Below, in pieces: positions 2 through 59,270 of a stretch of DNA of 64,000 nucleotides. Made by a program: the position numbers and the translations under genes. The notes under the pieces are model-generated. The model had not been told where the DNA came from and searched no databases. It saw only the letters and a program-made list of their open reading frames with translations. How positions within the stretch are numbered: the stretch's first letter is position 1; each line of letters opens with the position of its first letter. This DNA is from Planctomycetota bacterium (GTDB lineage Bacteria; Planctomycetota; UBA1135; UBA2386). The stretch lies in contig JBKAGP010000001.1 in the NCBI GenBank assembly GCA_046290465.1, forward strand, positions 2,368,001 through 2,432,000, read 5' to 3'.

Positions 2-2500
2 TGGGACGGCGCGATCTTCCATCCCGTCGGCACGTCGGCGACGTTCACGCTGGCGGTCCGCGCGATGCTGGCCCGCAGCAACGGCGACCTGCTGATCGCC
101 GGCGGCGGCAGCGCGCCGGTGATGCGCTGGAACGGCAGCAACTGGAGCACGCTCGGATCCGGGCTCGGCCAGCGGCCCGAACGGCTGATCGAGACCTCGA
201 CCGGCGCGGTGTTCGCCGGCGGCACGACCAACGTGCAGCCGTTCGTCGGTCAGGTTGCGGAGCTGATCGGCAGCAGCTGGACCACCCGCGGCACCGCGCT
301 CGACCAGGACGTGTTCGACCTGCTGGAGCTCGCCGACGGCCGCATCGCGGCGTGCGGCGGGTTCGCCGTGCTCGACGCGGCGGCGTGCGCGCGCATCGGC
401 GCCTGGGACGGCCAGGGATGGGCACCGGTGACGACCGGCTGCGAGGGCGTGATCATGTCGATCACGCAGCTCTCGGACGGCAGCGTCGTCGTCGGCGGCA
501 GCTTCCGGCACATCGGCGACCTGCAGACCCACGGCATCGCGCGCTTCGACGGCGCCAGCTGGCAACCGCTCGGCAGCGGCGTGTTCGGCAACGTCGCCGA
601 CGTCGCCGAGGCCCCCAACGGCGACCTCTACGTGGCCGGCTACTTCGGCGAGGCGGGCGGCGTGGCCTGCAACAGCGTGGCGCGCTGGGACGGCACGGCC
701 TGGCACGCGATCGGCGGCGGCGTGCCGTTCGGCATCCTGCAGACGATCGCCCTGCAGCAGAACGGCCTGCCGATCGTCGGCGGCGCCGTGGCCGGCGGCG
801 CCCACATCCAGCGCTTCGACGGCAGCGCCTGGGTGCCGCTCGGCGCCGGCACGTCCGGCACCGTCTACGACATCGCGATCGCGCCCAACGGCGACGTGAT
901 CGCCGGCGGCCAGTTCGTGTTCGCCGGTGGCCAGGTGGTCCAGAACATCGCGCGCTGGAACGGCAGCTGGTCGGCGTTCGGCACCGGCCTGACCGGCCCG
1001 GTCTACGACCTCGACCTGATCGACGGCAGCGTGCTCTACGCGACCGGCCTCTTCGACCTGTTCACGCCGACGGCGCACGGCCTCGAGCTGTGGGACGGCA
1101 GCAGCTGGACCGCCATCCCGGGGATCGGCATCGCGTCCGACACCACGGTGGCGCCCAATGGCGATCTGCTGGTCCACGTCAGCAGCACGCGCAGCATCGT
1201 GCGCTGGGACGGCGTCGGCCCGACGACGATCGCCGGCTACAACATCCCGGGCATCTCGGGCAGCGTCGCGGCACTCGCGTTCGTCGACGACACGCTGTTC
1301 GTCGGCGGCCGGATGAGCACCGAGGTCGCCGGCTTCCACAACTTCGCGCTCGGTCGGCTGGGCACGCCGTGCCCGCCCATCTCGTTCGACATCGGCGGCG
1401 GCTGCAGCGGCCACCAGCTGCAGGTCGACGCGCCGTGGGCCGGCCAGGCCGTGATCGAGAACGGCTCGGGCCTGCCGCCCGCCACGCTGGTCGTCGTCGC
1501 CCGCGGCCTGACCGCCACCAACGTGCCGCTGCCGAACGTGCTGCCACAGGGCCAGGCCGGCTGCACGCTGCGGGTCGGCAACGCGCTGCTCGAGCCGACC
1601 CTCTCGTCGACCACCGGCACCACCAGCACCTCGTGGCAGCTGCCCAACGACCCGGCGCTCGGCGGGGTGCAGGTGTTCGCGCAGCTGGTGACGCTGCCGA
1701 TCGCCGGCGGCGCGCTGGGCCCGGTCGCGGCGAGCAACGCGGTCGAGCTGCGGGTCGGGGCGTTCTCGGGCACGGGGCGTTCTACGGGCACGGGGCGTTC
1801 AGGGGCACGGGGCGTTCAGGGGCACGGGGCGCTAAGAGACACCGGGCGCGCCGGTCCGGCCCGCGGCAGCCGGACCCGGAGGGTGGTATGCTCGCCACTA
1901 CTCTGCAATGCAAAGCCCATCGACAGCCGCCCGCCGCACGTCCACCGCGCTCGCCATCCTGGCGTGGGGCGTGCTCCCCCTGCTCGGCCTGTGCGCGGAG
2001 ATCGCGACCGGCATGCTCAGCAGCGAACTGCCGCTGTTCCCGTCGCTGGGCTGGATCGCGGCCGTCGTGCTGGCGGTGTTCGCAAACCTCGCGCTGCACG
2101 CCGACGCCACCAGCAACCGGCTGCCGCTGCTGGCGTCGGCGTTGCTGCACGCGTTCGTGCTCGGCATGGCGGTGCTCTACGCCGCTGCGGAGCTGCCGGC
2201 GATCCTGGTCATCGTGATGCTGATCCCGGTCGGCTTCGGCGCACTCGCGGCCGCGCCGTTCCTGACGCTGCTCGGCATGGTGCGGCTGCTGCCGCGGCTG
2301 GCGCGTCGCTGGTCCGAAGCCGGCGGCACACCGGCCAACCTGGTGCTGCTGCTGCTCGCCGGCACCGGCGCACCGGCGGCGATCTGCACGTTCGGAGTCG
2401 TCGAGCGCAACCAGGTGCATCGCTGCATGCAGGAGCTCGCCGCGAGCCTCGACGGCGGGAGCTTCGACCGACAAGAACGGCTGGCCGCGCAGCTGCGTGA
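2..2500 (+). CDS. Secreted beta-propeller protein ([R/W]WDG repeats) with conserved C-terminal domain; 5'-partial. The homologous part ends at ~1765; the rest is read-through over a tandem repeat
   Basis: Frame open from base 2 (WDGAIFHPVG...). Repeated G.L.VGG.F.....IARWDG..W..LG.G units; C-terminal ...LPNDPALGGVQVFAQ...AASNAVELRVGAF at ~1765. No stop until 2500, overlapping the next gene by ~590 nt. Confidence 0.8.
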   Translation, partial: WDGAIFHPVGTSATFTLAVRAMLARSNGDLLIAGGGSAPVMRWNGSNWSTLGSGLGQRPERLIETSTGAVFAGGTTNVQPFVGQVAELIGSSWTTRGTALDQDVFDLLELADGRIAACGGFAVLDAAACARIGAWDGQGWAPVTTGCEGVIMSITQLSDGSVVVGGSFRHIGDLQTHGIARFDGASWQPLGSGVFGNVADVAEAPNGDLYVAGYFGEAGGVACNSVARWDGTAWHAIGGGVPFGILQTIALQQNGLPIVGGAVAGGAHIQRFDGSAWVPLGAGTSGTVYDIAIAPNGDVIAGGQFVFAGGQVVQNIARWNGSWSAFGTGLTGPVYDLDLIDGSVLYATGLFDLFTPTAHGLELWDGSSWTAIPGIGIASDTTVAPNGDLLVHVSSTRSIVRWDGVGPTTIAGYNIPGISGSVAALAFVDDTLFVGGRMSTEVAGFHNFALGRLGTPCPPISFDIGGGCSGHQLQVDAPWAGQAVIENGSGLPPATLVVVARGLTATNVPLPNVLPQGQAGCTLRVGNALLEPTLSSTTGTTSTSWQLPNDPALGGVQVFAQLVTLPIAGGALGPVAASNAVELRVGAFSGTGRSTGTGRSGARGVQGHGALRDTGRAGPARGSRTRRVVCSPLLCNAKPIDSRPPHVHRARHPGVGRAPPARPVRGDRDRHAQQRTAAVPVAGLDRGRRAGGVRKPRAARRRHQQPAAAAGVGVAARVRARHGGALRRCGAAGDPGHRDADPGRLRRTRGRAVPDAARHGAAAAAAGASLVRSRRHTGQPGAAAARRHRRTGGDLHVRSRRAQPGASLHAGARREPRRRELRPTRTAGRAAA
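1756..1841 (+). repeat. Five-copy 17-18 bp degenerate tandem repeat (CGGGGCGTTC(T/A)..GGGCA)
   Basis: cggggcgttctcgggca / cggggcgttctacgggca / cggggcgttcaggggca / cggggcgttcaggggca / cggggcgctaagagaca. Confidence 0.9.
1884..1892 (+). promoter_or_regulatory. Putative extended -10 element (TGnTATGCT) for the 1908 gene
   Basis: TGGTATGCT ending 15 nt upstream of ATG 1908, an AT-rich motif in a very GC-rich background. Confidence 0.45.
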
Positions 2501-4232
2501 GCTGGATCTTGCCTGGCAGCTGCACCTCGTGCGGATGGGCACGACGCTCGCGCTGCCGTGGTCCGACCACCCAGGTGCGGCGCACCTCGCCGACGGCAGG
2601 CCGTTCTGGTTCGTGCAACGCCTCTGCCTGTACGATCTGTCCCAACGCGACGCCGCCGACGCGTTCTACCGCGCGCACGGCCGCTCGGGGCTCGAACCGC
2701 AGCCGGGCGGCCGGGACCGGCAGGTCCGTTCGCGGTCGCTGCACTGGCACACGAGCGAGTTCGAAGCGCACGTCGAGCCGGCCGCCGGGGTCGCGCGCGT
2801 CGACTGGCTGCTCGAGGTGCACGCCTCGTCGATGGTGTTCCAGGAGGCCCGCTTCGATCTGCGGCTGCCGTTCGGGGCCGTGGCTTCGTCGCTGTCGATG
2901 TCGATCGAAGGCGAAGAACGGCCCGCCGCGTTCGCCGGGGCGGGCGAGGTGCGCAAGGCCTACGAGCAGGTCGTCGCGACCCGCCGCGATCCGGCGTTGC
3001 TGACCGAGACCGACCCGGGGCAGCTGCAGCTGCTGGTGTTCCCGGTGGCGCGCCAGCTGCCGCCGGCACGGGTGCGGGTGTCGTTCACGGTGCCGATCGC
3101 GACCACGGGCGAACACGGCCTGCTGTCGCTGCCGGACATCGCCGCGCACAACTGCAATGGCAGCACGCCGGCGGCGCACCACCTGACCGTGGTGACCGGG
3201 GATCGCCGGGAGTCGCACACGGTGCCGATCGACGCGCCGCCGCCCGAACTGCGCACCGCGCGGCCGGACGCGGTGACGTTCACCGAGGATGCCGACGGGG
3301 TGCTCACGCAGACCGTGCGCTCGGCCCCGACGTCGACCCGCACGCAAGACGCCCCGCTGCTGGTCGTGGTCGAGGCCTCGGCGTCGGTCGCGCGACTCGG
3401 GCGCGACCTCGGAGCACTGTTCGAAGGCCTCGCGACCGGCCAGCCGTGCTCGGTGTTCGTCGCCTGTGGCGGCACCCACTTCGAGCGCGTCGACGGCGAG
3501 GTCGGTGCGCCGTCGTTCGGAGCCGCGCTGGCGCGGATCCCGTGCCGCGGCGGCTGCGATCCGGCCAGGGCCCTGCAGGCGGCCCTGCAGGACGCCGAGC
3601 AGCATGCCAAGGCGACCGGCACGGGCGAGGTGCTCTGGCTGCAAGGCGCCGTGCCGCGACGCCTGGAGGACCTGGTGCCGACCGTGCCCGAGAACGTCCG
3701 CATCGAGGCCTATGCGCTGGCGTCCGGCGGCAACGCGCTGGCGGACGAGCCGACGCTGGCGGCGGCCATCGAGCGCCAGTGGTGCGGCGCGGTCACCGCG
3801 CGCCAGGCGAGCGAGGTGATCGCCAACACCGCACCGCGCCACGGTGATGGCCTGCGGGTCGGCGACAGCGAGCGACGGTTCGCGCGCTCCGAGGCGGCGC
3901 CGCCGGGCGCCGTTCGCGTGTCCGACCAGCTCGCGCGGCTGTGGGCCGGGTGGCGCGCCAGGGACCTGCTGCGCACCGGCGTGCCGGTCGACGCCGCCGA
4001 TCTGGCCAGCCGCTATCGCGTCGCCACCGCCGGCGTCGGCGCCGTCGTTCTCGAGAACCAGCGACAGTACGAGCAGCACGCGCTCGACCCTGGCGCCGCG
4101 ATCGGTCGCGAGCCCGAAGGCGTCGTCGGCGGCGGCCCGGTGCCCGAACCGACCACGATCCTGCTGCTCGGATCCGGCCTGCTGGCGCTGCTGTGGGCCC
4201 ACCGGCGGCGGCAGCGACCGGCCGCCGGATGA
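1908..4232 (+). CDS. Integral-membrane VIT-domain protein with PEP-CTERM sorting signal
   Basis: About 5 N-terminal TM helices; VIT-like core (EARFDLRLPFGAVASSLSMSIEGEERPAAF...AYEQVV..RRDPALL...LLVFPV); C-terminal VPEPTTILLLGSGLLALLWAHRRRQR (PEP motif + TM + basic tail). Confidence 0.8.
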   Translation: MQSPSTAARRTSTALAILAWGVLPLLGLCAEIATGMLSSELPLFPSLGWIAAVVLAVFANLALHADATSNRLPLLASALLHAFVLGMAVLYAAAELPAILVIVMLIPVGFGALAAAPFLTLLGMVRLLPRLARRWSEAGGTPANLVLLLLAGTGAPAAICTFGVVERNQVHRCMQELAASLDGGSFDRQERLAAQLRELDLAWQLHLVRMGTTLALPWSDHPGAAHLADGRPFWFVQRLCLYDLSQRDAADAFYRAHGRSGLEPQPGGRDRQVRSRSLHWHTSEFEAHVEPAAGVARVDWLLEVHASSMVFQEARFDLRLPFGAVASSLSMSIEGEERPAAFAGAGEVRKAYEQVVATRRDPALLTETDPGQLQLLVFPVARQLPPARVRVSFTVPIATTGEHGLLSLPDIAAHNCNGSTPAAHHLTVVTGDRRESHTVPIDAPPPELRTARPDAVTFTEDADGVLTQTVRSAPTSTRTQDAPLLVVVEASASVARLGRDLGALFEGLATGQPCSVFVACGGTHFERVDGEVGAPSFGAALARIPCRGGCDPARALQAALQDAEQHAKATGTGEVLWLQGAVPRRLEDLVPTVPENVRIEAYALASGGNALADEPTLAAAIERQWCGAVTARQASEVIANTAPRHGDGLRVGDSERRFARSEAAPPGAVRVSDQLARLWAGWRARDLLRTGVPVDAADLASRYRVATAGVGAVVLENQRQYEQHALDPGAAIGREPEGVVGGGPVPEPTTILLLGSGLLALLWAHRRRQRPAAG

Positions 4233-4286
4233 GGCGGCGGCGGCGCGCCAGCGGCTCACCACCGCGGGGCGGCGGCCGCGGCCGGC

Positions 4287-4312
4287 GGATCTGCGCCGTC
4301 CGGCGCAGCTCC
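4287..4312. terminator. GC-rich hairpin between convergent genes
   Basis: ggat-ctgcgccg-tc-cggcgcag-ctcc stem-loop; no U-tract. Confidence 0.35.
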
Positions 4313-4314
4313 GA

Positions 4315-6231
4315 TCAGAACTGCTCGAGTTCGCAGTTGGTGCGGAACCAGCCGCTGACGGCGTCGAAGCCGACCGCCTGGAAGCTCATCTGCTGGCCGA
4401 CCAGCAGCCAGTTCGGGATGTTGGTGTAGAGCCAGGTCTTGCCCGGGGTGCCGATCGCGCCGGTGCCCGAGAACGAGACGCCACCGAACGCGCCGGTGCC
4501 GTCTTCGAGCACGAGCGTCAGCGCGTAGCCCGGATCGGTGCAGATCGGACCGATCGGCGACGGCAGCGTCGGCGAACCGGGGTACGACATGAACACGATG
4601 TACGGGACCTGACCCGACGGCGCCGCGGTCTGGTTGACCGTGTTGAGCACCAGCAGCGTCGTGGTCGGGCCGACCACGCCGGTGGCCGACAGCTTGCGGG
4701 CGAACAGCGAGAACTCGCCGTTGCTCTGCGAACCGGGCGTGCTGGCGGTGACCGTCAGCGCGCCGCCGGCCGTGCCGTCGGCCGTGACCGTCGTCTGCGC
4801 GAAGCCGTTGCTGTCGGCGATGACCGGGTTGGTCGTCGACAGCGAGTGGCCGCCGGTCACCGAGAAGTTGACCGTGCCGCCCGGCAGCGGGTTGTTGTTG
4901 GTGTCGAGGACCTGCACCTCGATCGGCTGCGGGAACGTCTCGCCGTGCGGGCCGATCTGGTCGTCACCGCTGACGGCGACGACGCTGTTGGTCGGGCCGA
5001 GCGCGCGGATCCGGCGCAGGCTGCCACCAGACGTCGCGTAGGTGCCGGGGTGCTGCGTGAAGTAGATCGCGCCGTCCGGGCCCATGCGCATCGCGGTGGT
5101 CGCGACGAAGCCGTTGCCCCACGACGAGGCGTTCGGCTGGCCGGGCACCTGCGGCGCGGGCGCCCACGTGCCGTTGGTGTTCTTGATGCGGCGCAGCTGG
5201 CCGGCGAAGTAGTCGAGGTAGAACGCGTCGCCCTCGTAGCCGGTGCCGAAGTCGAAGTTCGTGCCGCCGTTGCGGTAGACGGGGCCGCCGATGATCGAGT
5301 TCCACGCGCCCGACGACTCGGCCGCGATCGGGTTGACCGACGACGGCGCGCCGCCGCCACAGCTCGAGTAGTTGCCGAGGCCTTCGCGCCACGGCCAGCC
5401 GAAGTTGACCAGCTGCAGGTTGCCCGACTGGTAGACGTACTCGCTGTACTCCTCCTGCGAGACCTGGCCGACGTCGCCGATGTAGCAGTTGCCGGTGACC
5501 TGGTCGACCTCCATGCGGAACGGGTTGCGCAGGCCGTTGGCGATCACCAGGCGGCTCCAGTTGTTGACGCCGCTGTTCGGGTTGTTGCCCGGATCGATGG
5601 TCGCGTAGCTGGGCTCCGAGTTGCTCGGGCCGGCCGGCAGCGCCGCGACGTTCATGCGCAGCAGGCAGCCGCTCTTGGACGTCAGGCTCTGCGCCGTGCA
5701 CTGCACCGCGTCGTCCCCGATCGACAGGTAGAGCATGCCGTCGGGACCGAAGCGAGCCGCACCGCCGTTGTGGTTGAAGTTCGAGTCGGGCGACGAGTTG
5801 ATGATCACGCGACGCGACGCCGTCGAGAACGACAGGTTGGTGCTCGCCGCGTTCGCGAGGTCGCCGGTGCAGGTCAGACGATCCAGGTGCATGAAGCTGT
5901 CCTGGGTGCTCGACCACCACACGTAGATGTAGCCGTTGGTCGCGAAGTTCGGGTCGGCCTCGATGCTGAGCAGGCCGCGCTCGCTGCCGGTCTCGACGCT
6001 GCTGACCGTGCCGATCTGCTGCAGGCCGACGCCGTCGGCGTAGACGTGCACGGCACCGCCGCGGTTGGCGATCAGGATCCGGCCGTCGGCCAGGAACGTG
6101 AAGTCGTGGCAGGCCTGCAGGCCCGACGACACCAGCGTGTCGACGACGAAGTTGGTCGGGACGTTCTGCGCGCACGCGGTCGTGGCGATGGCCAGACCGG
6201 TAGCCGCGGAGAGAAGAGCAGTTCGAAGCAT
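4315..6231 (-). CDS. Secreted PQQ-dependent glucose/sorbosone dehydrogenase (GSDH)-like beta-propeller with Ig-like domain and conserved C-terminal domain
   Basis: Start MLRTALLSAATGLAIATTACAQ (ATG 6231, GAGG upstream); GSDH motifs ERGLLSIEADPNF..NGYIYV, NHNGG..RFGPDG.LYLSIGD, GLRNPFR, DVG, NFGWP..EG; Big-like VSGDDQ...V.V.D...PL.G.TV.F segment. Confidence 0.85.
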   Translation of the reverse strand: MLRTALLSAATGLAIATTACAQNVPTNFVVDTLVSSGLQACHDFTFLADGRILIANRGGAVHVYADGVGLQQIGTVSSVETGSERGLLSIEADPNFATNGYIYVWWSSTQDSFMHLDRLTCTGDLANAASTNLSFSTASRRVIINSSPDSNFNHNGGAARFGPDGMLYLSIGDDAVQCTAQSLTSKSGCLLRMNVAALPAGPSNSEPSYATIDPGNNPNSGVNNWSRLVIANGLRNPFRMEVDQVTGNCYIGDVGQVSQEEYSEYVYQSGNLQLVNFGWPWREGLGNYSSCGGGAPSSVNPIAAESSGAWNSIIGGPVYRNGGTNFDFGTGYEGDAFYLDYFAGQLRRIKNTNGTWAPAPQVPGQPNASSWGNGFVATTAMRMGPDGAIYFTQHPGTYATSGGSLRRIRALGPTNSVVAVSGDDQIGPHGETFPQPIEVQVLDTNNNPLPGGTVNFSVTGGHSLSTTNPVIADSNGFAQTTVTADGTAGGALTVTASTPGSQSNGEFSLFARKLSATGVVGPTTTLLVLNTVNQTAAPSGQVPYIVFMSYPGSPTLPSPIGPICTDPGYALTLVLEDGTGAFGGVSFSGTGAIGTPGKTWLYTNIPNWLLVGQQMSFQAVGFDAVSGWFRTNCELEQF

Positions 6232-6444
6232 GATGGAAAGGACCTCTACCGGTGATGGGGAGCGCCGCCAGGGCGAGCGTCGGCGCGGTAGGCAGGTCGC
6301 AGAAGTGTAGCGGCCGGACCGCAGCTTGGCAGCGGGGAACTGCGCCCTGTGGCCCGGTCGGGCGTAAGGCCACGGCCGTCGCGTCGGGCCGTTCGCCGAT
6401 CGGTCAAGCCGGCTGCGCGCGGGTGCCGATCGATCCCCCACGGC

Positions 6445-7785: not shown

Positions 7786-7815
7786 ACGGCGCCCCGAACT
7801 GCCGATAGGACTGCC

Positions 7816-9240: not shown

Positions 9241-9246
9241 CGCCGC

Positions 9247-9314
9247 GCCAACCGCCGGTTGGTAAGGCCTGCTCCCGGACCCGATCTTGCGGACCCGATC
9301 CTGCGGACCGGGAG
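9247..9314. repeat. Structured intergenic element: 14-bp direct repeat x2.4 inside inverted ends; related to the 49541 palindrome
   Basis: cggacccgatcttg cggacccgatcctg cggacc (9276-9309) flanked by ctcccgg/ccgggag; 9261-9290 matches 49577-49606 at 24/30. Confidence 0.7.
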
Positions 9315-9371
9315 GAAAATGTTGGGGATGGGATCCAACGGGCGGGGGGATCGAGCCGATAGCAACGGACG

Positions 9372-20148: not shown

Positions 20149-21576
20149 ATGAACCCCTCCACCCGCACGTTCTTTCCCGTTCTCGCCCTGGCGGCGACCC
20201 TGCCGTGCCAATGGCAGGAGCAGACGCCCGCGAGCAACCCCGGCCCGCTCAGCGCGATGGCCATGGCGGCCAACCCGGCCGGCCTGATCGTCGTGTCCGG
20301 CGGCGACACCGGCACCTTCCCGACGCCGTTCAGCACCGCGACCTGGCTCTACTCGCAGGGCACCTGGACGCAGTCGCCGGCGACCGGTCCGAGCGGTCGC
20401 TTCGAGGCGCAGATGGTGCACGACGCGCTGCGCCAGCGCTGGGTGCTCTACGGCGGCTGGACCTCGCCGTTCTCGATCGGCAGCGGCAACGACGAGACCT
20501 GGGAATTCGACGGCGCGGCGTGGAGCCAGATCGCGACGGCCAACACGCCGGGCGGCTTCTGGAAGCACGCGATGAGCTACGACGTCCTGCGCGGCGTGAC
20601 GGTCCTGTTCGGCGGCGCCACCAACGGCCTGCCGGGCGCGACCGACGGCACCTACGAGTACGACGGCACCGACTGGACCCAGCGCACCCCCACCACCACG
20701 CCGGGCTGGCGCGAGAACCACTCGATGTGCTTCCACACCAACCTCGGCGCCACGGTGATGTTCGGCGGCTTCGACCCGCTGGCCAACTCGGTGCAGAACG
20801 AGACCTGGACCTGGAACGGCACCGACTGGTCGCTGGTCACGCCGGTCGGGCCACAGCCGCCGGCGCGCGCCAGCGCCGAACTGGTCTACGACTCGGTGCG
20901 CGGCGTCAGCGTGCTGCACGGCGGTAATGACAACTCCGGCGCGGCCTTCGACGACACCTGGGAGTTCGACGGCGCCACCTGGACGCAGGTGCCGGGCACC
21001 GGCCCGGGCAACCGCGCGTTCGGCGCCGCGTTCGACGCCGGCGAACGCGTCGTGGTCCGCTACGGCGGCATCGGCCACACGTCGGAGACCTGGACGTTCG
21101 GCGCCACCGCGCGCACGTTCGGCACCGGCTGCGCGGGCAGCAACGGCGTGCCGGCGCTCGACGCGGTCGATGCGCCGCGCCTCGGCCAGAACCTCGACCT
21201 GACGCTCGCCAACCTCAACCCGGCGATCACGGTCGGCGTGTTCGCGCTGTCGCTCGCGACGATCGCGCCGACCCCGCTCGATCCGATCGGCATGCCCGGC
21301 TGCACCGGCTACGTCGCCCCCGACCTGCTGCTCAACGGCACCGCCGCCGGCGGCACCGCCACCTTGCAGCTGCCGCTGCCCGGCACGCAGGCGCTGATCG
21401 GCACGTCGATCTTCGCGCAGGGCCTGTCGTTCGACCCGGGCATCAACGCCGCGTGGCTGGCGGCGTCGAACGCGTTCGCGGGCGTGATCGGCAGCTCGGC
21501 GCGTCCATGTGGACGCGCTACCAACCGTGATCGCGGAAGCGGTGTGTACGCGTGCGGACGGGGCTTTGCCCGCTAG
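20149..21576 (+). CDS. Secreted kelch-like beta-propeller protein with conserved C-terminal domain
   Basis: Signal peptide ..ALAATLPCQ; repeats P..R....M.YD..R...VLFGG......ETWE.DG..W; C-terminal FGTGC...GMPGC...LP.P....L.G...AQ...AASNA...IGS. Confidence 0.85.
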
Positions 21577-21657
21577 GCGCGTCCATGTAGTGGACGCGCT
21601 GCCAACCGTGATCGCGGAAGCGGGGTGTACGCGTGCGGACGGGGCTTTGCCCGCTAG
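21494..21657 (+). repeat. Tandem direct repeat, two copies of 78/81 bp, each with an internal hairpin
   Basis: ggcgcgtcca[tg|tgtag]tggacgcgct.ccaaccgtgatcgcggaagcgg.gtgtacgcgtgcggacggggctttgcccgcta at 21498-21575 and 21576-21656. Confidence 0.95.
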
Positions 21658-21735
21658 TTTCCGGAAACCCCGGCCGCGAACGCCGCCAACAGCCCGCTGA
21701 CGCCGGCGCCCGAAGCGGTTACGCTCTCGGGTACC

Positions 21736-49540: not shown

Positions 49541-49604
49541 AAGATTGGTTCCGAGGCAGGACCTCACGGACCGATCGGTGAGGCCTTGTCCCGGAACCGT
49601 TCTT
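49541..49604. repeat. Imperfect 27-bp inverted repeat (family B) between convergent genes; probable terminator
   Basis: aagattggttccgaggcaggacctcac ... gtgaggccttgtcccggaaccgttctt, 21/27 complementary. Confidence 0.75.
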
Positions 49605-50529: not shown

Positions 50530-50546
50530 CGATCCCGACGTTCCGG

Positions 50547-51527: not shown

Positions 51528-51613
51528 GCGCGACCCGCGACGCTCCAGCCACGCACGAGCAGGCCCCCGGGGCGCTACTTCGAGGGCTGAGGCTGCGGCG
51601 GCCCCGCCCAGGA

Positions 51614-54100
51614 CTACTGCACCATCAACAGCGGCACCGCGTTGCTCGCGAAGCGCGGCTGCAGCGTCTGGTTGTCCGTCACCAGATACGCATGCGAGAA
51701 CTGCAACCCCAGCAGGCTCGCCAGCTGTGGCACGACCAACGTCGCGGTCGCCTCGCCGTTGGCGTCGAGCACGCCGATCGTGTTCTGCAGGATCACCGGG
51801 CTGAACACCGCCTGCGTCAGCGCGAACCACGGGTCGTTCTGGCTGTTGAGCGGCAGCAGCACGTTGCCGAACTGCGTGCCCGGCGCGGTGCCGGTCATCG
51901 AGCCGAGCAGCTGGTAGTTCTGGCCGGCCTCGTCGATGCCGGCGCGCAGCGTGAAGTCGACCTGGCCGATCTGCGCGACCGACGCCTGGTCGGTGCTGGC
52001 CTGCAGCGGGTCGCAGACGTCGAGCACGCCGTTGGCGTCGAAGTCGTCGGCGCCGTTGGCGAGTTCGCAGGTGTCGGGCTGGCCGTTGCCGTCGCAGTCG
52101 GCGACGTCGCCATAGCGAACGCGCAGGATCCGGCCGCCGACGGTGGTCGGGCCGTTGAGGCCGTTGTCGGCGTAGAGCTCGCTGAAGTAGAGGCCGTCCG
52201 GCCCCGCCGTCAGCGCGACCGCGGTGGCACGGCCGTCGCCGGTATACTCGACGAACGGCAGCGGCCCCTGCTGCAGGTTGCCGTTGAGGTCGAACACCCA
52301 CTCGGTGATCACCTTGCCGATCGCCTGCTCGCCCTCGGCGTAGGTCGCACCGCTCTCGGTGACGAACGCGTGGTCCTGCTTGTCCTGCGGGTAGCCGCTG
52401 CCGCCGAACGTCTGCGGCTGCACGAACGCGATGTTGACCGGCCCGGTCGACGGCGCCCAGTTGTGGATCGCGAAGTTCGACATGCTCTGGTCGGAGCCGT
52501 TCCAGCCGAAGTTGCGGCCGCCGACGAGCCGCGACAGGCGATCGACGTTGGGACCGTTCTCGACGCAGTAGCGCTCGCCGTCGGCCGCGCGGAAGGCGCC
52601 GCCGAACGGGTTGCGCACGCCGTAGCACCAGACGTAGTCTCGCGCGTCGACGGTGCCGCCGTTGTAGAACGGGTTGCTGGCCACCGGCGCGCCGTTGAGG
52701 TCGAGGCGCAGGATCTTGCCGCGATACGACGACAGGTTCTGGGCGGTGCCGCTGTTGAAGCCGTCGCCCATGTGGCAGTAGAGCAGGCCGTTGACGATCT
52801 CGAGGTTGGAGATCTGGTGCGACTGGCCCTGCGTCTCGCCCTGCATGTCGAGGATCACCTGGCTCGATGAGGCGCTCAGACCGCCGTTGCTCGACGAGTA
52901 ACGGGTGATGCGCGGATAGTTGTTGTTGCCGGTGCGCCACAGGTGCGACACGAACACGTCGCCGCTGACCGGATCGACCGCGATGCCGGCGAGGCCCTGC
53001 TCGCCGCTGCCCGGGAACGCGCCGGACGGGGTGTAGTTGATCACGTTGGTCGCGTAGTTGGCGACCAGGCCGCTGTTGGTGACGACCTTGATCGTGCCGT
53101 AGAGCTCGGTCACGTAGAACTTCGGCGCGGTCGGCAGGCTGCTCTGGTTGGGCGCGAACGCGATGTTGACCGGCAGCTGCAGCCCCTGCGCGACCACGTC
53201 GAGCGTGTAGCCGGCCTGCACCGGCTGCCACGGCACCGGCACGGTGCGCGCCAGCGACGAGAAGTCCGGCACGAACGAGGTCGGGTCGGCGTCGTAGGTC
53301 GAACCGTGCTCGCCGACCCAGTAGACGACCTGACCGTGCGCCGGCAGGTTGACCGCCGGCAGGTGGATCGAGAACGGCTCGCATTCGGTCTCGAAGCCGT
53401 GCAGGTCGGTCGGCGGCAGCACCAGCCCGTTGCTGCCGGCCTTGAACACGACGCGCACGGCGCGGTGCACCGGCAGCGGCGGCGGGTTGCTGACCTTGTT
53501 GCCGACGCCGGGGTCCCCCTCGATGCGCAGCAGCTGCCAGTGCGTGTCGGTCTCGACCCGCAGCATCGGCTGCGGCGCGCCAGTCGGCAGGTCGACCGCG
53601 TTGCCCTGCAGGTCCTCCCAGCGCGGCGCCGCGACGTGGTCGATGTCCTGCAGGAACAGCGCGTCCTTGACGCCGGCCGCCCCGGTCGCGAACGGGATCG
53701 ACGACCACGGGCTCCACTCGGTGGCCGGGTCGCCACTGTCGTCGCGGTGCCGCACGCGCAATTCGAACGAGGCGTCGGCGAACAGCCGCTGGAAGCCCAG
53801 GTGCGAGTTCTCGAACACGCCGTCGCCGAGGTGCGCGTGCACCTTCTCGAGGCCGGTGACGTTGTCGGCGACCCAGACCCGCTGGCTGGGCGTGACGGTC
53901 CAGATCTCCCACGTCGACGCGAGGTGCTGGTCACCCGGGTCAGGATCCGAGAACGGCGCACTCTCCATGTGCACGTCGCTCGGGTTGACGACCAGGTTGG
54001 CGACCGGCGGCTCGGTGAACGTCGGCGCGAGCGGTGCGGTGTTCTGCGCGGCGAGCGCGCAGGAGAGGGCCGCGAACGGCAGGTGGCGGAGCATCGTCAT
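51614..54100 (-). CDS. Secreted GSDH-like beta-propeller protein with N-terminal extension, Asp/Cys Ca-binding motifs and C-terminal domain
   Basis: MTMLRHLPFAALSCALAAQ; EQGLAGIAVDP, SHQI, MGDG...AQ....RGKILR, YGVRNPFG, ENGP..DR, NFGW; DCDGNGQPDTC..DFDANGVLDVC; ends ..P.LASLLG...FASNAVPLLMVQ. Confidence 0.85.
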   Translation of the reverse strand: MTMLRHLPFAALSCALAAQNTAPLAPTFTEPPVANLVVNPSDVHMESAPFSDPDPGDQHLASTWEIWTVTPSQRVWVADNVTGLEKVHAHLGDGVFENSHLGFQRLFADASFELRVRHRDDSGDPATEWSPWSSIPFATGAAGVKDALFLQDIDHVAAPRWEDLQGNAVDLPTGAPQPMLRVETDTHWQLLRIEGDPGVGNKVSNPPPLPVHRAVRVVFKAGSNGLVLPPTDLHGFETECEPFSIHLPAVNLPAHGQVVYWVGEHGSTYDADPTSFVPDFSSLARTVPVPWQPVQAGYTLDVVAQGLQLPVNIAFAPNQSSLPTAPKFYVTELYGTIKVVTNSGLVANYATNVINYTPSGAFPGSGEQGLAGIAVDPVSGDVFVSHLWRTGNNNYPRITRYSSSNGGLSASSSQVILDMQGETQGQSHQISNLEIVNGLLYCHMGDGFNSGTAQNLSSYRGKILRLDLNGAPVASNPFYNGGTVDARDYVWCYGVRNPFGGAFRAADGERYCVENGPNVDRLSRLVGGRNFGWNGSDQSMSNFAIHNWAPSTGPVNIAFVQPQTFGGSGYPQDKQDHAFVTESGATYAEGEQAIGKVITEWVFDLNGNLQQGPLPFVEYTGDGRATAVALTAGPDGLYFSELYADNGLNGPTTVGGRILRVRYGDVADCDGNGQPDTCELANGADDFDANGVLDVCDPLQASTDQASVAQIGQVDFTLRAGIDEAGQNYQLLGSMTGTAPGTQFGNVLLPLNSQNDPWFALTQAVFSPVILQNTIGVLDANGEATATLVVPQLASLLGLQFSHAYLVTDNQTLQPRFASNAVPLLMVQ

Positions 54101-54108
54101 CGCGGGTC

Positions 54109-55863
54109 TCAGTTTCCGATGGTGAAGGCGAGGGCGTCGCCGAGCACGAAGCCGCACGCGGCCGCGCTGAGTTCGACGTACTGGCCGACGACGACCTGGC
54201 CGCACAGCCCGGGCGTGCCCGGCATCGGCAGCGTGAAGGTCGCGCCGCCAGCGCCGTCGACGAGCGCCGGCAGCAGCACCGGGCTGAGCACGTGCACCGT
54301 GCCCGAGCAGGCCGGGAACACCGTCGACAGCGGCAGCGACGTCTGGCCGACCGACAGCGCCCACAGGCCGAACGGCGTGTTGGGCGTCGCGCCGGCGACG
54401 GTCCAGTCGAGGTCGCAGCCGAGCGCGCCGTTCGAGGTCGTCGAGATGGTCGGGCCGACGCCGCCGCCGAGCACCACCGCGCCGCCGGCGTTGGCGCAGG
54501 CCAGGCAGCCGGTGACGTTGGCAGCGAGCACCGCGCAAGCGCCGCTCTGGTTGGAGAAGTTGGAGAACGTGATGCCGGTCAGCACGAAGCCCTGCAGCGG
54601 CGACAGGTCGACCGTGCCGCGTTCGATCCGCAGGGGCAGCCCGGGCAGGGCGCGGTCGGCGTTGCCGGTGCCGGCGAAGCTGCCGCCGACCCAGTCGCCG
54701 CCGCGCAGCGTCGCGGTGATCGAACCACCCTGCAGCGAGAACGTCACGTCGAACGCGCCGCCGCCGTGCGTCATCTGGAACAAGAACTCGGCTTCCGAGG
54801 CCCCGTCCAGCAGGATCGGTGCAGCGAGCGTCGTCGTCTGCGGACCGGTCAGGTCGACGTTCGGCAGCCACGCCGGCTGCACGCCGAGGTCGTCGCCATC
54901 GGGCGTGGGATCGAACGCGAGCGAACCGCCGGCGAGCGTGTCGCGGTTGCCGATCATGACCAGGTCGAGCACGCCCGGCTGGTCGACCAGTTCGAAGCCG
55001 TCGAGCAGCGCGTTGCTCGGCACACCTCCCTGGAAATCGAGCGCGCGGTCGGCGACCGCACGGAAGCCGTTGGGTGCGTCGGGCTGCTGCGCCTCGCCGG
55101 CGTGCACCATGCCGTTCCAGTTGTAGTCGAGGGCAATCGCGTTGACGCGCTCGGGCAGCACGGCCGCCTCGACGTTGACCCCGTAGAAGCCGTAGCCGGC
55201 GTTCTGGTTGCTGCGGTTGGCGAACGTGACGCTGGTCATCGCCTCGCCCGCCTGGCCGCTGAGGTCGATGACGAACTCGACCAGGTTGAGGTTGGACCCG
55301 CTGTTGGCGCGGTCGACGCTGTCGCGGCCGGGGATCGAGCCCCCGAACCAGTCCGGCGCGGTGACCACGTGGGTGCTGCTCGCGCCACTCTGGTAGCCGA
55401 AGGTCACGTCGCACGAGCCGCCGCCGTTGCTGACGTGGAACAGCACGCTGGCCGTCGACGTCGCGCCGAGCGGGATCGGCGTCGCGATGGCCGTCGTCTG
55501 CGGCCCGGCCTGGTCGGGATTGCCGAGCCACGACGGCTGCACGCCGACGTCGTTGCCGTTGGCGAACGAATCGAACGCCCAGTTGCCGTTGTCGACCGTA
55601 TCGCGGTTGCCAAGGTGCACCATGTCGAGCACGCCAGCGGTCTCGACCAACGCGAAGCGCTGCAGCACCGCGCTCGCCGGCACGCCGTTGGTGAAGTCGA
55701 GCGCGCGGTCGCTGATCGAACGGAAGCCGTTCGGCGCGTCGGGGCTGCCCGCCTCGCCGCTGTGGGCGATGCCGTTGAAGTTGTAGTGCAACGGCACCTG
55801 CACGGTGTTCTGGGCGGCGAGCGCGCCGGCCAGCGCGAACGAGACGAACAGGATCCTCGGCAT
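54109..55863 (-). CDS. Secreted protein with two copies of an unrecognised ~220-aa domain plus conserved C-terminal domain (paralog of 57504..59270)
   Basis: Signal ..GALAAQ; YN[FW]NG..H.GE...PDAPNGFR...DRALDF twice. Confidence 0.85.
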   Translation of the reverse strand: MPRILFVSFALAGALAAQNTVQVPLHYNFNGIAHSGEAGSPDAPNGFRSISDRALDFTNGVPASAVLQRFALVETAGVLDMVHLGNRDTVDNGNWAFDSFANGNDVGVQPSWLGNPDQAGPQTTAIATPIPLGATSTASVLFHVSNGGGSCDVTFGYQSGASSTHVVTAPDWFGGSIPGRDSVDRANSGSNLNLVEFVIDLSGQAGEAMTSVTFANRSNQNAGYGFYGVNVEAAVLPERVNAIALDYNWNGMVHAGEAQQPDAPNGFRAVADRALDFQGGVPSNALLDGFELVDQPGVLDLVMIGNRDTLAGGSLAFDPTPDGDDLGVQPAWLPNVDLTGPQTTTLAAPILLDGASEAEFLFQMTHGGGAFDVTFSLQGGSITATLRGGDWVGGSFAGTGNADRALPGLPLRIERGTVDLSPLQGFVLTGITFSNFSNQSGACAVLAANVTGCLACANAGGAVVLGGGVGPTISTTSNGALGCDLDWTVAGATPNTPFGLWALSVGQTSLPLSTVFPACSGTVHVLSPVLLPALVDGAGGATFTLPMPGTPGLCGQVVVGQYVELSAAACGFVLGDALAFTIGN

Positions 55864-55878
55864 GGGTCTCGCGGGGTT

Positions 55879-57309
55879 CTAGAAACCGAACATCAGCTGC
55901 TGGCCGTTGCTCGACGCCAGGCCGAGCGAGGTCAGCGTCGAGAACGCGACGCCCTGCGCCGACACCATCTGGCCGGCGAGGTTGGGGTCGGCGGGCAGCG
56001 GCAGCGCGAACGCGCCGGCACCGGCGGCAAGCGGCCCGGTGAGGTAGAGGCCGAGGTCGAGGTTGGTGTAGCCGAAGCAGCCGGCCATGCCGACCGCGGT
56101 CAGGTCGATGCCCGGGTTGACGACCTGCGTGCCGAACCCGACCAGCGCGGCCGGCGACGCCGCCGGCACGCCCGAGACGACCAGTTCGAAGCCGGCGTTG
56201 CCGATCGACGGCGCGCCGTTGGTCGCGAGCAGCAGGTTGTCGCAGCCGATGCCGTAGCCGCTGGCGTTGGCGAGTCCGCCGAAGTCGACCAGGAACGCCT
56301 GGATGCCCTGGTTGGTGCTCATCGCGTAGAGGATCGCCGTGCTGCCGGCCACCGCCCCCCACTGCACCGAACCGACGCCGTTGACGTTGCCCGGCAGCGC
56401 ACCGACCGTGTTGTTGGCGGTCGCCAGCTGCACCGGCGCGGCCGGGTCGGTGACGTCGAAGACGAGCACGTCCGACGAGTTGGTGTCGACCACGGCGAGC
56501 ACCGGCGTGTTGCCGATCACGGTGTAGTCGAGCGGCCGGCGGGCGGTGCCGCCGAGCGGGATCGACCCCGACACCGTCGCGATGCCGCCGGGCGTGAAGT
56601 CGGTCTGGCGCGCCAGGCCGCCCTGGTTGCCGATCAGCGTGTCGCCGTCGACGAACGACAGCGACAGGCGGTAGTCGTTGGACGCGCTGCCGGTGCCGGG
56701 CACCGACAGGTAGGCGGTCGCGAGGTTGGTGCCGTCGAGCGGGCCGACGACGAAGTTGCTGGCCTGCACGTTGTTGGTGCCGGCGGCGGCGAACGTCACC
56801 GGCGTCGGGCCGACGCCGCCGGTCACCGCGAACGCGTCGCCGGTGCGGGTGACGCCGGTGATCGCGGTGTAGGCGACGGTCGGCGGAGTCGTGAAGCCGG
56901 TCGCCTCCGAATCCCACTTGTAGACCGTGAACGGCGCCGTCGCCGACGTGCTCAGGTTGGCGACGTAGATCGAACCGTCGTCGGCGCAGCCGGCCATGTT
57001 GACCAGGAACGTGCCGCCGCTGAAGCCGGTGTTGTCGAGGCCGCCGAGGTCGGTGCCCGACGCGCCGTCGAGCACGCGGATGTTGTTGGACACGCCAGCG
57101 ACGTTCTGTCGCGCGACCAGCACCAGGTTGCCGGTCAGCGGGTTGTAGGCAAAGCCACGCTCGGTGTTGGCGGTGCTGAGGTACGGCGTGCTGCCGGGGG
57201 CGAGCCAGCCGTTGCTGCCGAACGTGGTCAGCGGGGTCATCGAGACCTGGGCGGCGGCGGACGCGGTGACGGCCAGCGTCGCCGCGGTGGCGAGAAGGGT
57301 GGTGCGCAT
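55879..57309 (-). CDS. Secreted beta-propeller-like protein (possibly DUF4623-like) with conserved C-terminal domain
   Basis: MRTTLLATAATLAVTASAAAQ; ERGFAYNP.TGNL.LV.R, GGTF..N....DDG.IYV.NL, F.VYKW..E, R.GD.F; C-terminal YG.GC..GMAGC..LP.DPNL.G...AQ...SSNG...FGF. Confidence 0.8.
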   Translation of the reverse strand: MRTTLLATAATLAVTASAAAQVSMTPLTTFGSNGWLAPGSTPYLSTANTERGFAYNPLTGNLVLVARQNVAGVSNNIRVLDGASGTDLGGLDNTGFSGGTFLVNMAGCADDGSIYVANLSTSATAPFTVYKWDSEATGFTTPPTVAYTAITGVTRTGDAFAVTGGVGPTPVTFAAAGTNNVQASNFVVGPLDGTNLATAYLSVPGTGSASNDYRLSLSFVDGDTLIGNQGGLARQTDFTPGGIATVSGSIPLGGTARRPLDYTVIGNTPVLAVVDTNSSDVLVFDVTDPAAPVQLATANNTVGALPGNVNGVGSVQWGAVAGSTAILYAMSTNQGIQAFLVDFGGLANASGYGIGCDNLLLATNGAPSIGNAGFELVVSGVPAASPAALVGFGTQVVNPGIDLTAVGMAGCFGYTNLDLGLYLTGPLAAGAGAFALPLPADPNLAGQMVSAQGVAFSTLTSLGLASSNGQQLMFGF

Positions 57310-57503
57310 CGGAGTTCTTCGGATGGGATTGCAGGTAGGAAGCCGCCACACAATGCGCGCTGTCGCACCGGGATCCAGGCACCGTGCGTGAATGTCACAA
57401 TCGGATGCGCGGTGCCGCATCCGACCCGGAGTCGCCGCACTTTGCCGCGCTGCAGATGCACGACGAACTGCTACCTTCGCGGCGTCTTCGACCCAACCAC
57501 TTC

Positions 57504-59270
57504 ATGAACCGCTCCATCCTCGCTTCGGCCGCCCTGCTCGGCCTCTCCGGCGCCGCGTTCGCGCAGGCGATCCCGGTCCCGCTCGCCTACAACTTCAACG
57601 GCATCGTGCACGCCGGGGAGGCCGGCCTGCCCGACGACCCCAACGGCTACCGCTCGATCAGCGACCGCGGCCTCGACTTCACGCTCGGGGTGCCGAACGA
57701 CACGCTGCTCAACGCCTACCAGCTGATCGGCAGCGCCGGCGCGCTCGACATCGTGCACCTCGGCAACCGCGACACCGTCGACGGCGGCAACCGCGCGTTC
57801 CAGGCGACGGCCAACGGCGACGACATCGGCATCCAGCCGGCGTGGCTGCTCACCGTCGACCAGTCGACGCCGCAGACGACCGTGCTGCAGACGCCGCTGC
57901 CGATCACCAACACGACGTCGGTCGCGTTCCTCTACCAGATCAGCAACGGCGGCGGCGCGTTCGACGTGACCTTCACGTTCTTGAGCACCAACACGCACAC
58001 CGCGACGCTGAGCGGCGGCGACTGGTTCGGCGGCACCTACGCCGGCACGGCCAACACCGACAACGGCTTCGGCGGCAACAACCTGTCGATCACCGAAGGT
58101 CGCATCGACATGTCGGCGTTCGACGGCGAGGTCGTCAGCGAGATCGCGTTCTCGAACCGCAGCAACCAGAACGCCGGCTACGCGATCCTGGCCTGCAACT
58201 TCGAGTACCCGCTGCCGCCGTCGCGCGTGAACCAGATTCCGCTGAACTACAACTTCAACGGCGTCGTGCACGCCGGCGAGTCGGGCAACCCCGACGACCT
58301 GGTCGGCTTCCGCGCGATCAGCGACCGGGCGCTCGACTTCTCCAACGGCATCCCGGCCGACCCGCTGCTCGCCGAATACCAGCTCGTCGACCAGCCGCTG
58401 GCGCTCGACATGGTGCACCTCGGCAACCGCGACACCGTCGACGGCGGCGCGCGACCGTTCGACGCGGTCGCCAACGGCGACGACTTCGGCGTGCAGCCGG
58501 CGTGGCTGCTGAACGTCGACCAGACCGGGCCGCAGACGACGACGCTGGCCGACGCGATCCGCATGGACGCGACCTCGTCGGCGAGCGTGCTGTTCCAGAT
58601 CAGTAACGGCGGCGGCGCCTTCGACGTCGAGTTCACGTTTGCCAGCGGTGCGCCCGTGGTCGCGACGATCTCGGGGCCGGACTGGTTCGGCGGCACGCTG
58701 CCGGGCACCGGCAACACCGACAACGGCCTGCCCAGCGCCAACCTCTCGCTGACCGAACGCACCATCGACCTGTCGGCGCAGACCGGCCGCGTGCTGACGG
58801 CGGTGACGTTCCTCAACCGCACCAACCTCAACGCCGGCTACGCGGTGCTCGGCCTCAACGTCGTCGGCTGCATCGAGTGCGCCAACGGCGCGAGCGCGGT
58901 GATCACCAACCTCGGCGGCGGCACCAGCGGTTCGATCTCGACGGCCAGCACCGGCAACCTCGGTTGCGACCTCGACTGGACCGTGTCGGGCGGCACGCCC
59001 AACGCGTTCGGCCTGTGGGCGCTCGGTGAGGGCACGACCGCGGCCCCGCTGTCGCTGATCACCCCCGGCTGCCCGGGCACGATCCACACGCCCAACCCGA
59101 TCCTGATCACCTCGCCGCTCGACGCGCTCGGCGCCAGCACGTTCGTGCTGCCGCTGCCGCCGGACCAGGCGCTGTGCGGCTACCAGGTGACCGGCCAATA
59201 CGTCACGCTGGCGCCCGGCCCGTGCTTCCTGGTGCTCAGCGACGCCCTCGCGATCACGATCGGCAACTGA
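57504..59270 (+). CDS. Secreted protein with two copies of the same unrecognised ~220-aa domain plus conserved C-terminal domain
   Basis: MNRSILASAALLGLSGAAFAQ; YNFNG.VHAGE.G.PDD..G[FY]R.ISDR.LDF twice; collinear with 54109..55863. Confidence 0.87.
   Translation: MNRSILASAALLGLSGAAFAQAIPVPLAYNFNGIVHAGEAGLPDDPNGYRSISDRGLDFTLGVPNDTLLNAYQLIGSAGALDIVHLGNRDTVDGGNRAFQATANGDDIGIQPAWLLTVDQSTPQTTVLQTPLPITNTTSVAFLYQISNGGGAFDVTFTFLSTNTHTATLSGGDWFGGTYAGTANTDNGFGGNNLSITEGRIDMSAFDGEVVSEIAFSNRSNQNAGYAILACNFEYPLPPSRVNQIPLNYNFNGVVHAGESGNPDDLVGFRAISDRALDFSNGIPADPLLAEYQLVDQPLALDMVHLGNRDTVDGGARPFDAVANGDDFGVQPAWLLNVDQTGPQTTTLADAIRMDATSSASVLFQISNGGGAFDVEFTFASGAPVVATISGPDWFGGTLPGTGNTDNGLPSANLSLTERTIDLSAQTGRVLTAVTFLNRTNLNAGYAVLGLNVVGCIECANGASAVITNLGGGTSGSISTASTGNLGCDLDWTVSGGTPNAFGLWALGEGTTAAPLSLITPGCPGTIHTPNPILITSPLDALGASTFVLPLPPDQALCGYQVTGQYVTLAPGPCFLVLSDALAITIGN

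Follow-up and report, generated by a model that had tools for sequence, protein, structure and literature searches.

Seven proteins of the window and their C-terminal tails

The window, the whole 64,000-nucleotide stretch of planctomycete DNA analyzed here, encodes seven proteins whose tails are the subject of this study, and the reading frames, tails and C-terminal ends given in the initial annotation were all located where it had placed them. The first is the 3′ part of a gene for an 832-aa WDG/DUF5122-type propeller protein (2..1765, + strand; ORF and domain search), which starts 730 bases upstream of the window and there encodes a signal peptide ending ...ALPA-Q; its domain (1361..1765, +) falls in the core subfamily (E 3e-20 with an out-of-window model). 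A 449-aa protein (20149..21498, +) joins a signal peptide and a kelch propeller to a second core-subfamily domain (21097..21495, +; E = 7e-26), whose AlphaFold model is a beta-sandwich with pLDDT 96.6. Three genes lie on the − strand one after another: an 828-aa protein (51614..54100) with signal peptide, GSDH propeller and a domain (51617..52012, −; hhalign 80%, E 6e-10) of subfamily B, which carries GT.PG...LPLN.D and is without cysteines; a 584-aa protein (54109..55863) with signal peptide, two unnamed repeats and domain (54112-54510, E 3e-13); and a 476-aa protein (55879..57309) with signal peptide, DUF4623 and domain (55882-56283, E 2e-12). A 588-aa paralog of the 584-aa protein, also ending in the domain, follows on the + strand (57504..59270; domain 58869-59267, E 3e-13). 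The two paralogs (54109 and 57504) are 53% identical, so the passengers are of six types and not of seven as first described; a homolog of the 588-aa protein in Saltatorellus ferox Poly30 shares 59% identity and ends in a sibling subfamily of the domain. The remaining protein (638 aa; 4315..6231, −) consists of a signal peptide, a GSDH propeller, Big_1 and a divergent tail (4318..4701, −) of a conserved subfamily, a probable member that retains P..L.G....Q...D..G...N. A crude heuristic and visual inspection agreed with the annotation in finding Sec signal peptides and no terminal TM helix.

The annotated ends run directly into a stop codon in five genes, and in the other two the window reads TCG. 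In the kelch gene the TCG follows ...VIGS and the frame extends 26 residues past it; position 21497 is A in three of four sequencing runs (the best run having one difference in 674 bases at depth 118), which restores TAG at 21496-21498 as the true stop. The missing stop is an assembly error in the window, and the end first reported is correct. In the WDG/DUF5122-type gene the codon after ...VGAF (1765) is TCG and the frame continues for 245 codons into the next gene; because GC3 falls from 0.98 to 0.57 past ...VGAF, an assembly error of the same kind is likely.

Whether the tails form one family was judged with a profile of 75 genome members, all from outside the window, which returned no matches among reversed-sequence controls. 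The proposal that all seven share a module stood for six of them, which by this comparison are one family (E <= 6e-10), and is probable only for the tail at 4318 (E 0.087). The latter aligns over the last hairpin only (hhalign probability 6-13%, E 0.002-0.006), and its model has the strand order and the short helix before the last hairpin seen in the core domain model, suggesting that it is probably a divergent member.

An uncatalogued domain family of planctomycetes

The domain comprises about 135 residues and was found in 213 of the 51,421 ORFs of the genome at E<1e-3 (reversed control, 0), always as one copy per protein and never in tandem within the genome set. Members are mutually only about 30% identical and form divergent subfamilies within one genome; the passengers of 215 domain proteins fall into 112 clusters, and about four proteins are stand-alone forms of signal peptide and domain only. 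Signal-peptide and lipoprotein calls are our own heuristics, and the former assigns a signal peptide to 194 of 201 members and to 1,448 of 3,755 other proteins. Matches to the domain occur in about 25,000 protein clusters, and one in five of the Planctomycetota species sampled has 100-300 candidate sites in its genome; by family, the domain is either present at high copy number or absent. The best 30 ESM Atlas clusters are all unnamed (30/30), Planctomycetota being commonest among them, and the window stretch is represented in algal, coral, marine and aquaculture metagenome runs. No family in Pfam, NCBIfam or PDB corresponds to it, a PDB sequence search giving a single match at E 0.54, and searches of openly accessible literature listings found no paper describing the domain. 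The domain is uncatalogued.

The predicted fold is an all-beta, Ig-like beta-sandwich. Its best structure matches are generic Ig domains (Z 8.3-8.7, about 90 residues, rmsd 3 A), and such matches to a model are uninformative about function. Similarity to the ML (MD-2/NPC2/GM2-activator) lipid-binding fold was not upheld: its Foldseek rows were weak (E 0.005-0.03, TM 0.33-0.38, rmsd 8-11 A) and absent from the best 50 on re-alignment. Two cysteines are both present in 80 of 103 members and both absent in 14, and a disulfide between them is predicted as likely. The domain is near-uncharged and strongly hydrophobic, has few conserved exposed aromatics, and contains a conserved hydrophobic insertion, LP.DL...G.PGC, together with a Q/D/SN hairpin.

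The domain had been described as always terminal, which fails genome-wide. Although no more than 15 residues separate the domain from the stop in 191 of the 213 members, the distance is 16-50 residues in 12 and more than 50 residues in 10. Two of the 12 are likely stop-loss artefacts and about ten carry an extension of 30-45 residues; one of the 10 is the artefact at 1765, and in the other nine the domain is N-terminal or internal. In eight members the domain is followed by 100 residues or more; for five of these the best domain-less paralog is a predicted lipoprotein (identity up to 49%, four independent families), and three have no paralog. The neighborhoods of stand-alone and N-terminal members have no gene in common.

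Tail swaps, cargo composition and export machinery

The same passengers are found with different tails. Among 120 homologs of the DUF4623 passenger, 101 end in the domain, 17 in PEP-CTERM (five of these flagged by PF07589) and two are fragments, the exchange between domain and PEP-CTERM occurring at 52-60% identity. GSDH passengers 36-40% identical to that of the 638-aa protein bear FlgD_ig/Por_Secre_tail-like tails at five of the six loci scanned, a set that includes three with Eisenbacteria titles, and one Polyangiaceae GSDH homolog has by eye a MYXO-CTERM-like tail.

The passengers also differ in composition from other exported proteins, with 0.6% Lys and a median Lys+Arg+Glu content of 7.3%, compared with 3.4% and 18.1% in 481 other proteins with a signal peptide and Gln. 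Biosynthetic cost hardly splits the groups (21.9 versus 22.5), and charge and Lys content were therefore used instead. Of 156 low-charge exported proteins, 130 bear the domain, and for the majority of the remaining 26 inspection by eye suggests a tail of similar appearance; some low-charge exported proteins have neither domain nor lipobox. The domain-less partner is the more charged in 10 of 12 chosen paralog pairs, the two exceptions being lipoproteins with a Gly/Ser linker. In the same genome, flagellins, hook and hook-junction proteins contain 0-1.5% Lys and the periplasmic FlgI/FlgA 2.4-4.4%. The cargo thus resembles the extracellular flagellar proteins of its genome, which supports an outside location; composition indicates another compartment, not attachment, and released proteins would look alike. 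The Lys-poor signature is not general, Lys reaching at least 3% in 13 of 81 longer top matches. Taken together, the tail swaps, lipoprotein paralogs and Lys-poor cargo point to the domain as a surface address. The earlier proposal of a lineage-specific export or anchoring signal is thus upheld as lineage-restricted surface targeting (by tail swaps and cargo composition) and weakened as a T9SS-like, always-terminal export signal.

The genome encodes homologs of GspD/E/F and GspG. GlyGly-CTERM and MYXO-CTERM proteins are stated to reach the surface via T2SS (10.1101/2023.06.07.544157). The cargo probably crosses the outer membrane by type II secretion. The T9SS components PorP/SprF, PorU and SprA (PF11751, PF01364, PF14349) gave no matches in the 94% complete single contig, the control genomes being equally silent, and TIGR04183 gave one sub-threshold match in five domain-rich genomes. 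Dedicated machinery was not found among the candidates profiled, whose distributions were either too narrow or too broad, and such profiling has little power because the families rich in the domain are probably a single clade. Large Big_5 lipoproteins were rejected as scaffold (query matches in only 5 of 80 genomes). The 372-aa protein of a twin-secretin operon occurs in 25/36 domain-rich, 1/4 single-hit and 7/40 domain-free genomes and the second secretin of that operon in 36/36, 4/4 and 33/40 of the same groups, distributions that are compatible with a link to the domain, yet not specific. About 25 candidate outer-membrane barrels were porins, a TonB receptor, DUF481, LpxR, alginate export proteins or unnamed, none indicating an exporter. 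Glutaminyl cyclase (PF05096) was not found in the genome. An exosortase and a PEP-CTERM protein are present as a separate system.

Possible roles and comparison with known systems

Our best explanation, which could equally prove right or wrong, is that the domain is retained on the mature protein and fixes its cargo to the cell's outer face in place of PEP-CTERM tails or lipid anchors. Proteins with a Sec-type signal peptide, evident in their sequences, and a first mature residue that is mostly Gln would be exported; the domain is predicted to form a beta-sandwich that probably contains a disulfide; the folded protein would traverse the outer membrane, most likely by the type II system of the genome; and the domain would bind one shared surface component, which may be an outer-membrane lipid, a glycan or a scaffold protein, through contacts that we place in the conserved hydrophobic insertion and the Q/D/SN hairpin. 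Such anchoring would need neither cleavage nor a free C-terminus. The N-terminal copies and the lack of detected T9SS genes fit an uncleaved anchor better than a T9SS-style export signal, whereas the terminal position of about 90% of copies is as expected for an export signal and counts against the anchor reading.

The domain might instead be an export signal for an undescribed outer-membrane translocon, with logic like that of the T9SS CTD and possibly later cleavage, any anchoring being separate; its reader could be the twin-secretin/ExbB/ExbD operon or a T2SS variant. We regard this as a serious contender that is nonetheless doubtful. It accords with the largely terminal, single-copy occurrence, with the substitution for FlgD/Por_Secre_tail-like tails on GSDH cargo, with the presence of the domain on nearly all low-charge non-lipoprotein exported proteins and with the twin secretins of all 36 domain-rich genomes, but the nine N-terminal or internal members, the extended ones, the silent T9SS searches and the twin secretins of most domain-free genomes argue against it. 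Since export signals can also work away from a terminus, those of T2SS being structural, this reading is only weakened by these exceptions.

It is improbable that the domains bind one another and so assemble a lattice or matrix on which the passengers are displayed at the surface, with domain-only proteins as fillers. The stand-alone forms and the uncharged, very hydrophobic domain would suit such a structure, as would the extracellular matrix and aggregates that Saltatorellota cells make (10.1101/817700); about 30% identity and divergent subfamilies in one genome are hard to reconcile with a regular lattice, and tandem copies are missing. We give slightly less credence still to a CBM-like module holding released enzymes or adhesins on algal or coral polysaccharide and not on the cell: the Ig-like sandwich, the occurrence of the domain at either protein end and the origin of the metagenome runs are in its favor, but the domain takes the place of a lipid anchor or cell-surface tag on the same cargo, its passengers include redox proteins as well as propellers, and exposed aromatics are few. 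Least of all do we expect the domain to be a mere cap that stabilizes periplasmic proteins or helps them fold, carried from protein to protein by domain shuffling and free of any sorting role, for while the fold is generic and no machinery was found, the sharp compositional split from periplasmic-type paralogs, the exchange with PEP-CTERM and the all-or-none, high-copy distribution among families speak against it.

If the domain is a surface anchor, it identifies in one step the surface proteins of a large lineage that is mostly uncultured, and represents a new means by which a diderm cell retains folded proteins with neither sortase nor lipid. The swaps with PEP-CTERM and lipid anchors make this reading testable, and the sibling subfamily in the cultured S. 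ferox Poly30 provides a host. More tentatively, and with doubt outweighing belief, we speculate that a deep Planctomycetota branch including the cultured, shapeshifting Saltatorellus has an undescribed display system, in which a 135-residue Ig-like superfamily would both direct virtually every surface protein that is not a lipoprotein (4-5% of genes) to an outer-membrane route, perhaps a proton-driven twin-secretin/ExbBD machine, and anchor these proteins there as a protein substitute for the lipid anchor.

Several known systems share part of this logic. The T9SS type A CTD (TIGR04183/PF18962) and FlgD_ig tails (PF13860) are likewise beta-rich, single-copy and mostly C-terminal on unrelated signal-peptide proteins, and occur on homologous GSDH passengers of other phyla. 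However, none of 41 domain members matches TIGR04183 or PF18962 at E 0.1, although genuine FlgD/Por-type tails of GSDH homologs were recognized, and the domain is longer (about 135 versus 70-80 residues) and also N-terminal or internal. PEP-CTERM/exosortase, MYXO-CTERM and GlyGly-CTERM are also many-to-one surface addresses on varied cargo, but consist of a short motif, a TM helix and a basic tail (10.1101/2023.06.07.544157), whereas 0 of 215 domain proteins have a TM-like last segment and 4 of 215 a basic end. Dockerin type I (PF00404) is a terminal docking module on exported enzymes and binds a shared partner non-covalently, as the domain would; none of the 41 members matches it, the domain model is all-beta without the EF-hand pattern, and the genome has only one weak dockerin locus. 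The GC-type dockerin of other Planctomycetota is also a terminal docking module on exported enzymes. SLH, CWB2 and LysM are non-covalent, uncleaved and position-flexible anchors that bind an envelope polymer, compared with which the domain has no Pfam match and is a single Ig-like fold, unrepeated here, in a diderm host.

The window tails and their family

The initial annotation reported seven exported proteins sharing one C-terminal module, and the ORFs and tails lie where it placed them: W1, a WDG/DUF5122-type propeller (2..1765 +); W2 and W4, GSDH propellers (4315..6231 - and 51614..54100 -); W3, a kelch propeller (20149..21498 +); W5, with two unnamed repeats (54109..55863 -), and its paralog W7 (57504..59270 +); and W6, with a DUF4623 passenger (55879..57309 -). 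Against a profile built from 75 members, all outside the window, six tails fell into one family (E 7e-26 to 6e-10), including the cysteine-free W4 domain of subfamily B (hhalign to the core subfamily, 80-92%), and the W2 tail (4318-4701) scored E 0.087. The latter represents a well conserved subfamily of 141 homologs that aligns with the core over the last hairpin only (probability 6-13%; reversed control 0.1%), and it is modelled (pLDDT 90) with the core's order of strands and short helix; we regard it as a probable member. A stop had been placed after each tail, and in this assembly W1 and W3 instead carry TCG after the last residue. The W3 end is supported by reads, with A at 21497 in three of four sequencing runs (the best with one difference in 674 bases) giving TAG. 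The missing W1 stop is likely an assembly error as in W3, because codon bias collapses past VGAF and the frame continues into the next gene.

Stop-loss errors at CTAG sites may be systematic in this assembly. Two sites were noted, 21497 and G000:C1 (the genome's contig) near 198270, with CTAG in the runs at 21497 versus CTCG in the assembly; CTAG is depleted fivefold across the genome, and in a third family member (ORF 195954-198371, G000:C1) the frame continues beyond the domain, past a TGG codon whose C-TAG context is the same. Directly behind the W3 stop (21497-21658) an ~82-nt repeat occurs twice; this is a REP/MITE-like element of which the genome has 155 copies measuring 60 nt or more, which ends at CTAG-like sites and varies in occupancy among strains. 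Immediately past W1 (1768-1835), an ~18-nt unit (GGGCACGGGGCGTT-like) recurs four to five times; it is not repeated elsewhere in the genome.

Searching all 51,421 stop-to-stop ORFs of the genome with five profiles recovered 213 members at E<1e-3 and none in reversed controls, about 4-5% of genes (by a crude gene caller, 3,956 proteins kept), with six or seven in the 64-kb window versus about two expected. The domain had been described as always terminal; it ends within 15 residues of the stop in 191 members, and the remaining 22 of 213 extend further (16-50 residues in 12, >50 in 10). Two-copy proteins are absent from this genome, each member having a single domain, and the passengers of 215 proteins group into 112 clusters. 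The core profile matched 24,940 of 1.84 billion cluster representatives (E up to 0.001), the domain standing at the protein end in 148 of the best 150, and a phylum survey found it in 65/301 genomes, including 17/17 of the same order; presence was all-or-none among the 30 families listed, barring one weak single match. Some proteins consist of signal peptide and domain only (132-168 aa; G000:C1:3606003, 4278839, 4859367, 6134578). Others, of ~350 aa (G000:C1:302787, 468966, 1574591, 3264590, 3776803, 3869823, 4614714, 4707969, 6592269), begin with a common unnamed domain, followed by the family domain and a two-strand tail of 30-45 residues, which may double back onto the N-terminal domain.

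The core AlphaFold model (pLDDT 96.6) is a beta-sandwich. The structures closest to it are generic Ig domains, which match about 90 of its 132 residues at Z 8.3-8.7, and Foldseek with this model returned nothing at E 0.001. In an alignment weighted to the core subfamily, conservation is highest at P95 and Q108 (98%) and two cysteines (92% and 86%), followed by a hydrophobic insertion (LP.DL...G.PGC), D113 and a terminal SN...IG strand. Among 103 genome members, 80 have both cysteines and 14 have neither, a pattern consistent with a predicted disulfide between them. Charged residues are nearly absent, and no member has a TM-like end, as first proposed. There was no meaningful match in Pfam or NCBIfam for any of 41 members, nor to the domain among PDB sequences; in the ESM Atlas, none of the 30 closest clusters has a name, and literature search-result listings yielded no description. 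The passages of PMC11032199 on 417 protein families confined to the Saltatorellus clade name no such domain. The family is real and uncatalogued.

Compartment of the cargo

By a loose heuristic, signal peptides occur in 194/201 members, but also in 1,448/3,755 other proteins. The mature chain has Gln as its first residue, or close to it, in 180/194 signal-peptide members versus 588/1,148 others. Throughout this genome, the mature forms of exported proteins very frequently start with Gln, resembling the "Q rule" of Bacteroidota; a search of the genome for the glutaminyl cyclase family PF05096 gave no match. Passengers (171 proteins) contain 0.6% Lys, with a median K+R+E of 7.3%, compared with 3.4% and 18.1% in 481 other signal-peptide proteins with Gln; for 1,354 proteins of cytoplasmic type the values are 3.0% and 18.4%. 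Low-charge exported proteins number 156; the domain is on 130 of them, and visual inspection shows similar tails on most of the remaining 26. This split is not mere fold bias, since in 10 of 12 paralog pairs (hand-picked from 27 matches) the protein lacking the domain has a clearly higher content of charged residues, its counterparts in the other two pairs being lipoproteins with a Gly/Ser linker. The genome's seven flagellins, hook and hook-junction proteins contain 0-1.5% Lys, and periplasmic FlgI and FlgA 2.4-4.4%. Because passengers are strongly depleted in K, R and E, and these outside proteins are likewise Lys-poor, the cargo would be predicted to lie outside the outer membrane. The flagellins are short (275-aa) paralogs at G000:C1:4657004-4661270 and three other loci. 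Lys-poor cargo is not general, as 13/81 longer top matches from other organisms have at least 3% Lys; passengers of P0063, P0065, P0066, P0074 and P0133 (other organisms) are strongly basic and Lys-rich, and those of this genome acidic and Lys-poor.

Host lineage and candidate machinery

The genome (6.59 Mb, one contig, about 71% GC, 94% complete) has in its 16S rRNA what we take to be a Pla46-type site with one mismatch, and close homologs of one window protein are nearly all in Planctomycetota records. The window corresponds to G000:C1:2368001-2432000. The genome encodes an actin-like gene, which, together with a domain sibling in Saltatorellus ferox Poly30, suggests kinship with the Saltatorellota/OM190 group as outlined in sections of 10.1101/817700.

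PorP/SprF, PorU and SprA were not found in the genome, and control genomes were silent too. GspD/E/F and GspG homologs are present, with a second secretin/E/F set and type IV pilus and Tad genes. The T2SS is a likely route out of the cell, by analogy with GlyGly-CTERM and MYXO-CTERM proteins, which it is reported to bring to the surface (10.1101/2023.06.07.544157). An operon at G000:C1:1693134-1707521, adjoined by an actin-like gene, encodes TPR proteins, ExbB/MotA and two ExbD, flanked by two secretins of ~870 aa. Its secretin occurs in 36/36 domain-rich genomes, but also in 33/40 domain-free ones (orthologs in 73/80 genomes), a neighbor gene in 25/36 and 7/40, and large Big_5 lipoproteins in 5/80 only; no dedicated gene emerged from these profiled candidates. 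The Big_5 lipoproteins (870-1,320 aa, low-charge, with Gly-rich domains) cluster at G000:C1:1991953-2005894 and 1960310-1969945, and one set is bordered by a PDZ membrane protein and the prepilin peptidase/type IV pilus locus; these lipoproteins match no family beyond Big_5 and are probably surface proteins. A VIT-domain membrane protein (1908-4232 +) is the sole PEP-CTERM protein found by pattern search, and an exosortase gene lies at G000:C1:421970.

Proposed surface anchoring and its alternatives

Related passengers exchange their ends. Among the 120 best homologs of the W6 passenger, 101 end in the domain, 17 (52-60% identity) in PEP-CTERM and two are fragments. GSDH passengers 36-40% identical to W2 have FlgD_ig/Por_Secre_tail-like ends in five of six loci scanned, including Eisenbacteria, and one Polyangiaceae homolog has a Cys-TM-Arg end like MYXO-CTERM (by eye, unscored). 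In eight genome members the domain is followed by 100 or more residues; for five of these eight the best domain-less paralog is a predicted lipoprotein (49%, 48%, 34%, 31% and 28% identity; four families), and for three there is none. A further N-terminal member, the ninth, came to light later. Of the 120 best homologs of the W7 passenger, 83 end in the domain and nearly all the other 37 in related two-cysteine tails, including Poly30_07340 of Saltatorellus ferox. Aligned to the core, 28 such sibling tails match across 121 columns (probability 91%, E 1e-6; 0.2% for the reversed control), and their cysteines, Q, D and SN coincide with those of the core; this subfamily has no member in our genome.

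The best reading, to which we give an even chance, is that the domain would serve as an uncleaved, folded surface anchor, as this accounts for its interchange with PEP-CTERM tails and lipid anchors, its occurrence at N- and C-termini alike, the single copy and extracellular-type cargo. The main rival, that the domain is an export signal for a putative translocon, is possible at a lower probability: it explains why most copies are terminal and why nearly all low-charge cargo has the domain, but accounts less well for the N-terminal and extended forms. Anchor and export signal are compatible, and both can hold. Self-assembly of the domains is unlikely, binding of an external substrate more so, and a role as mere cap the least probable of all. 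Like T9SS CTDs, PEP-CTERM and dockerins, the surface-anchor candidate marks many exported proteins, yet it falls outside all three in those membership tests run for them.
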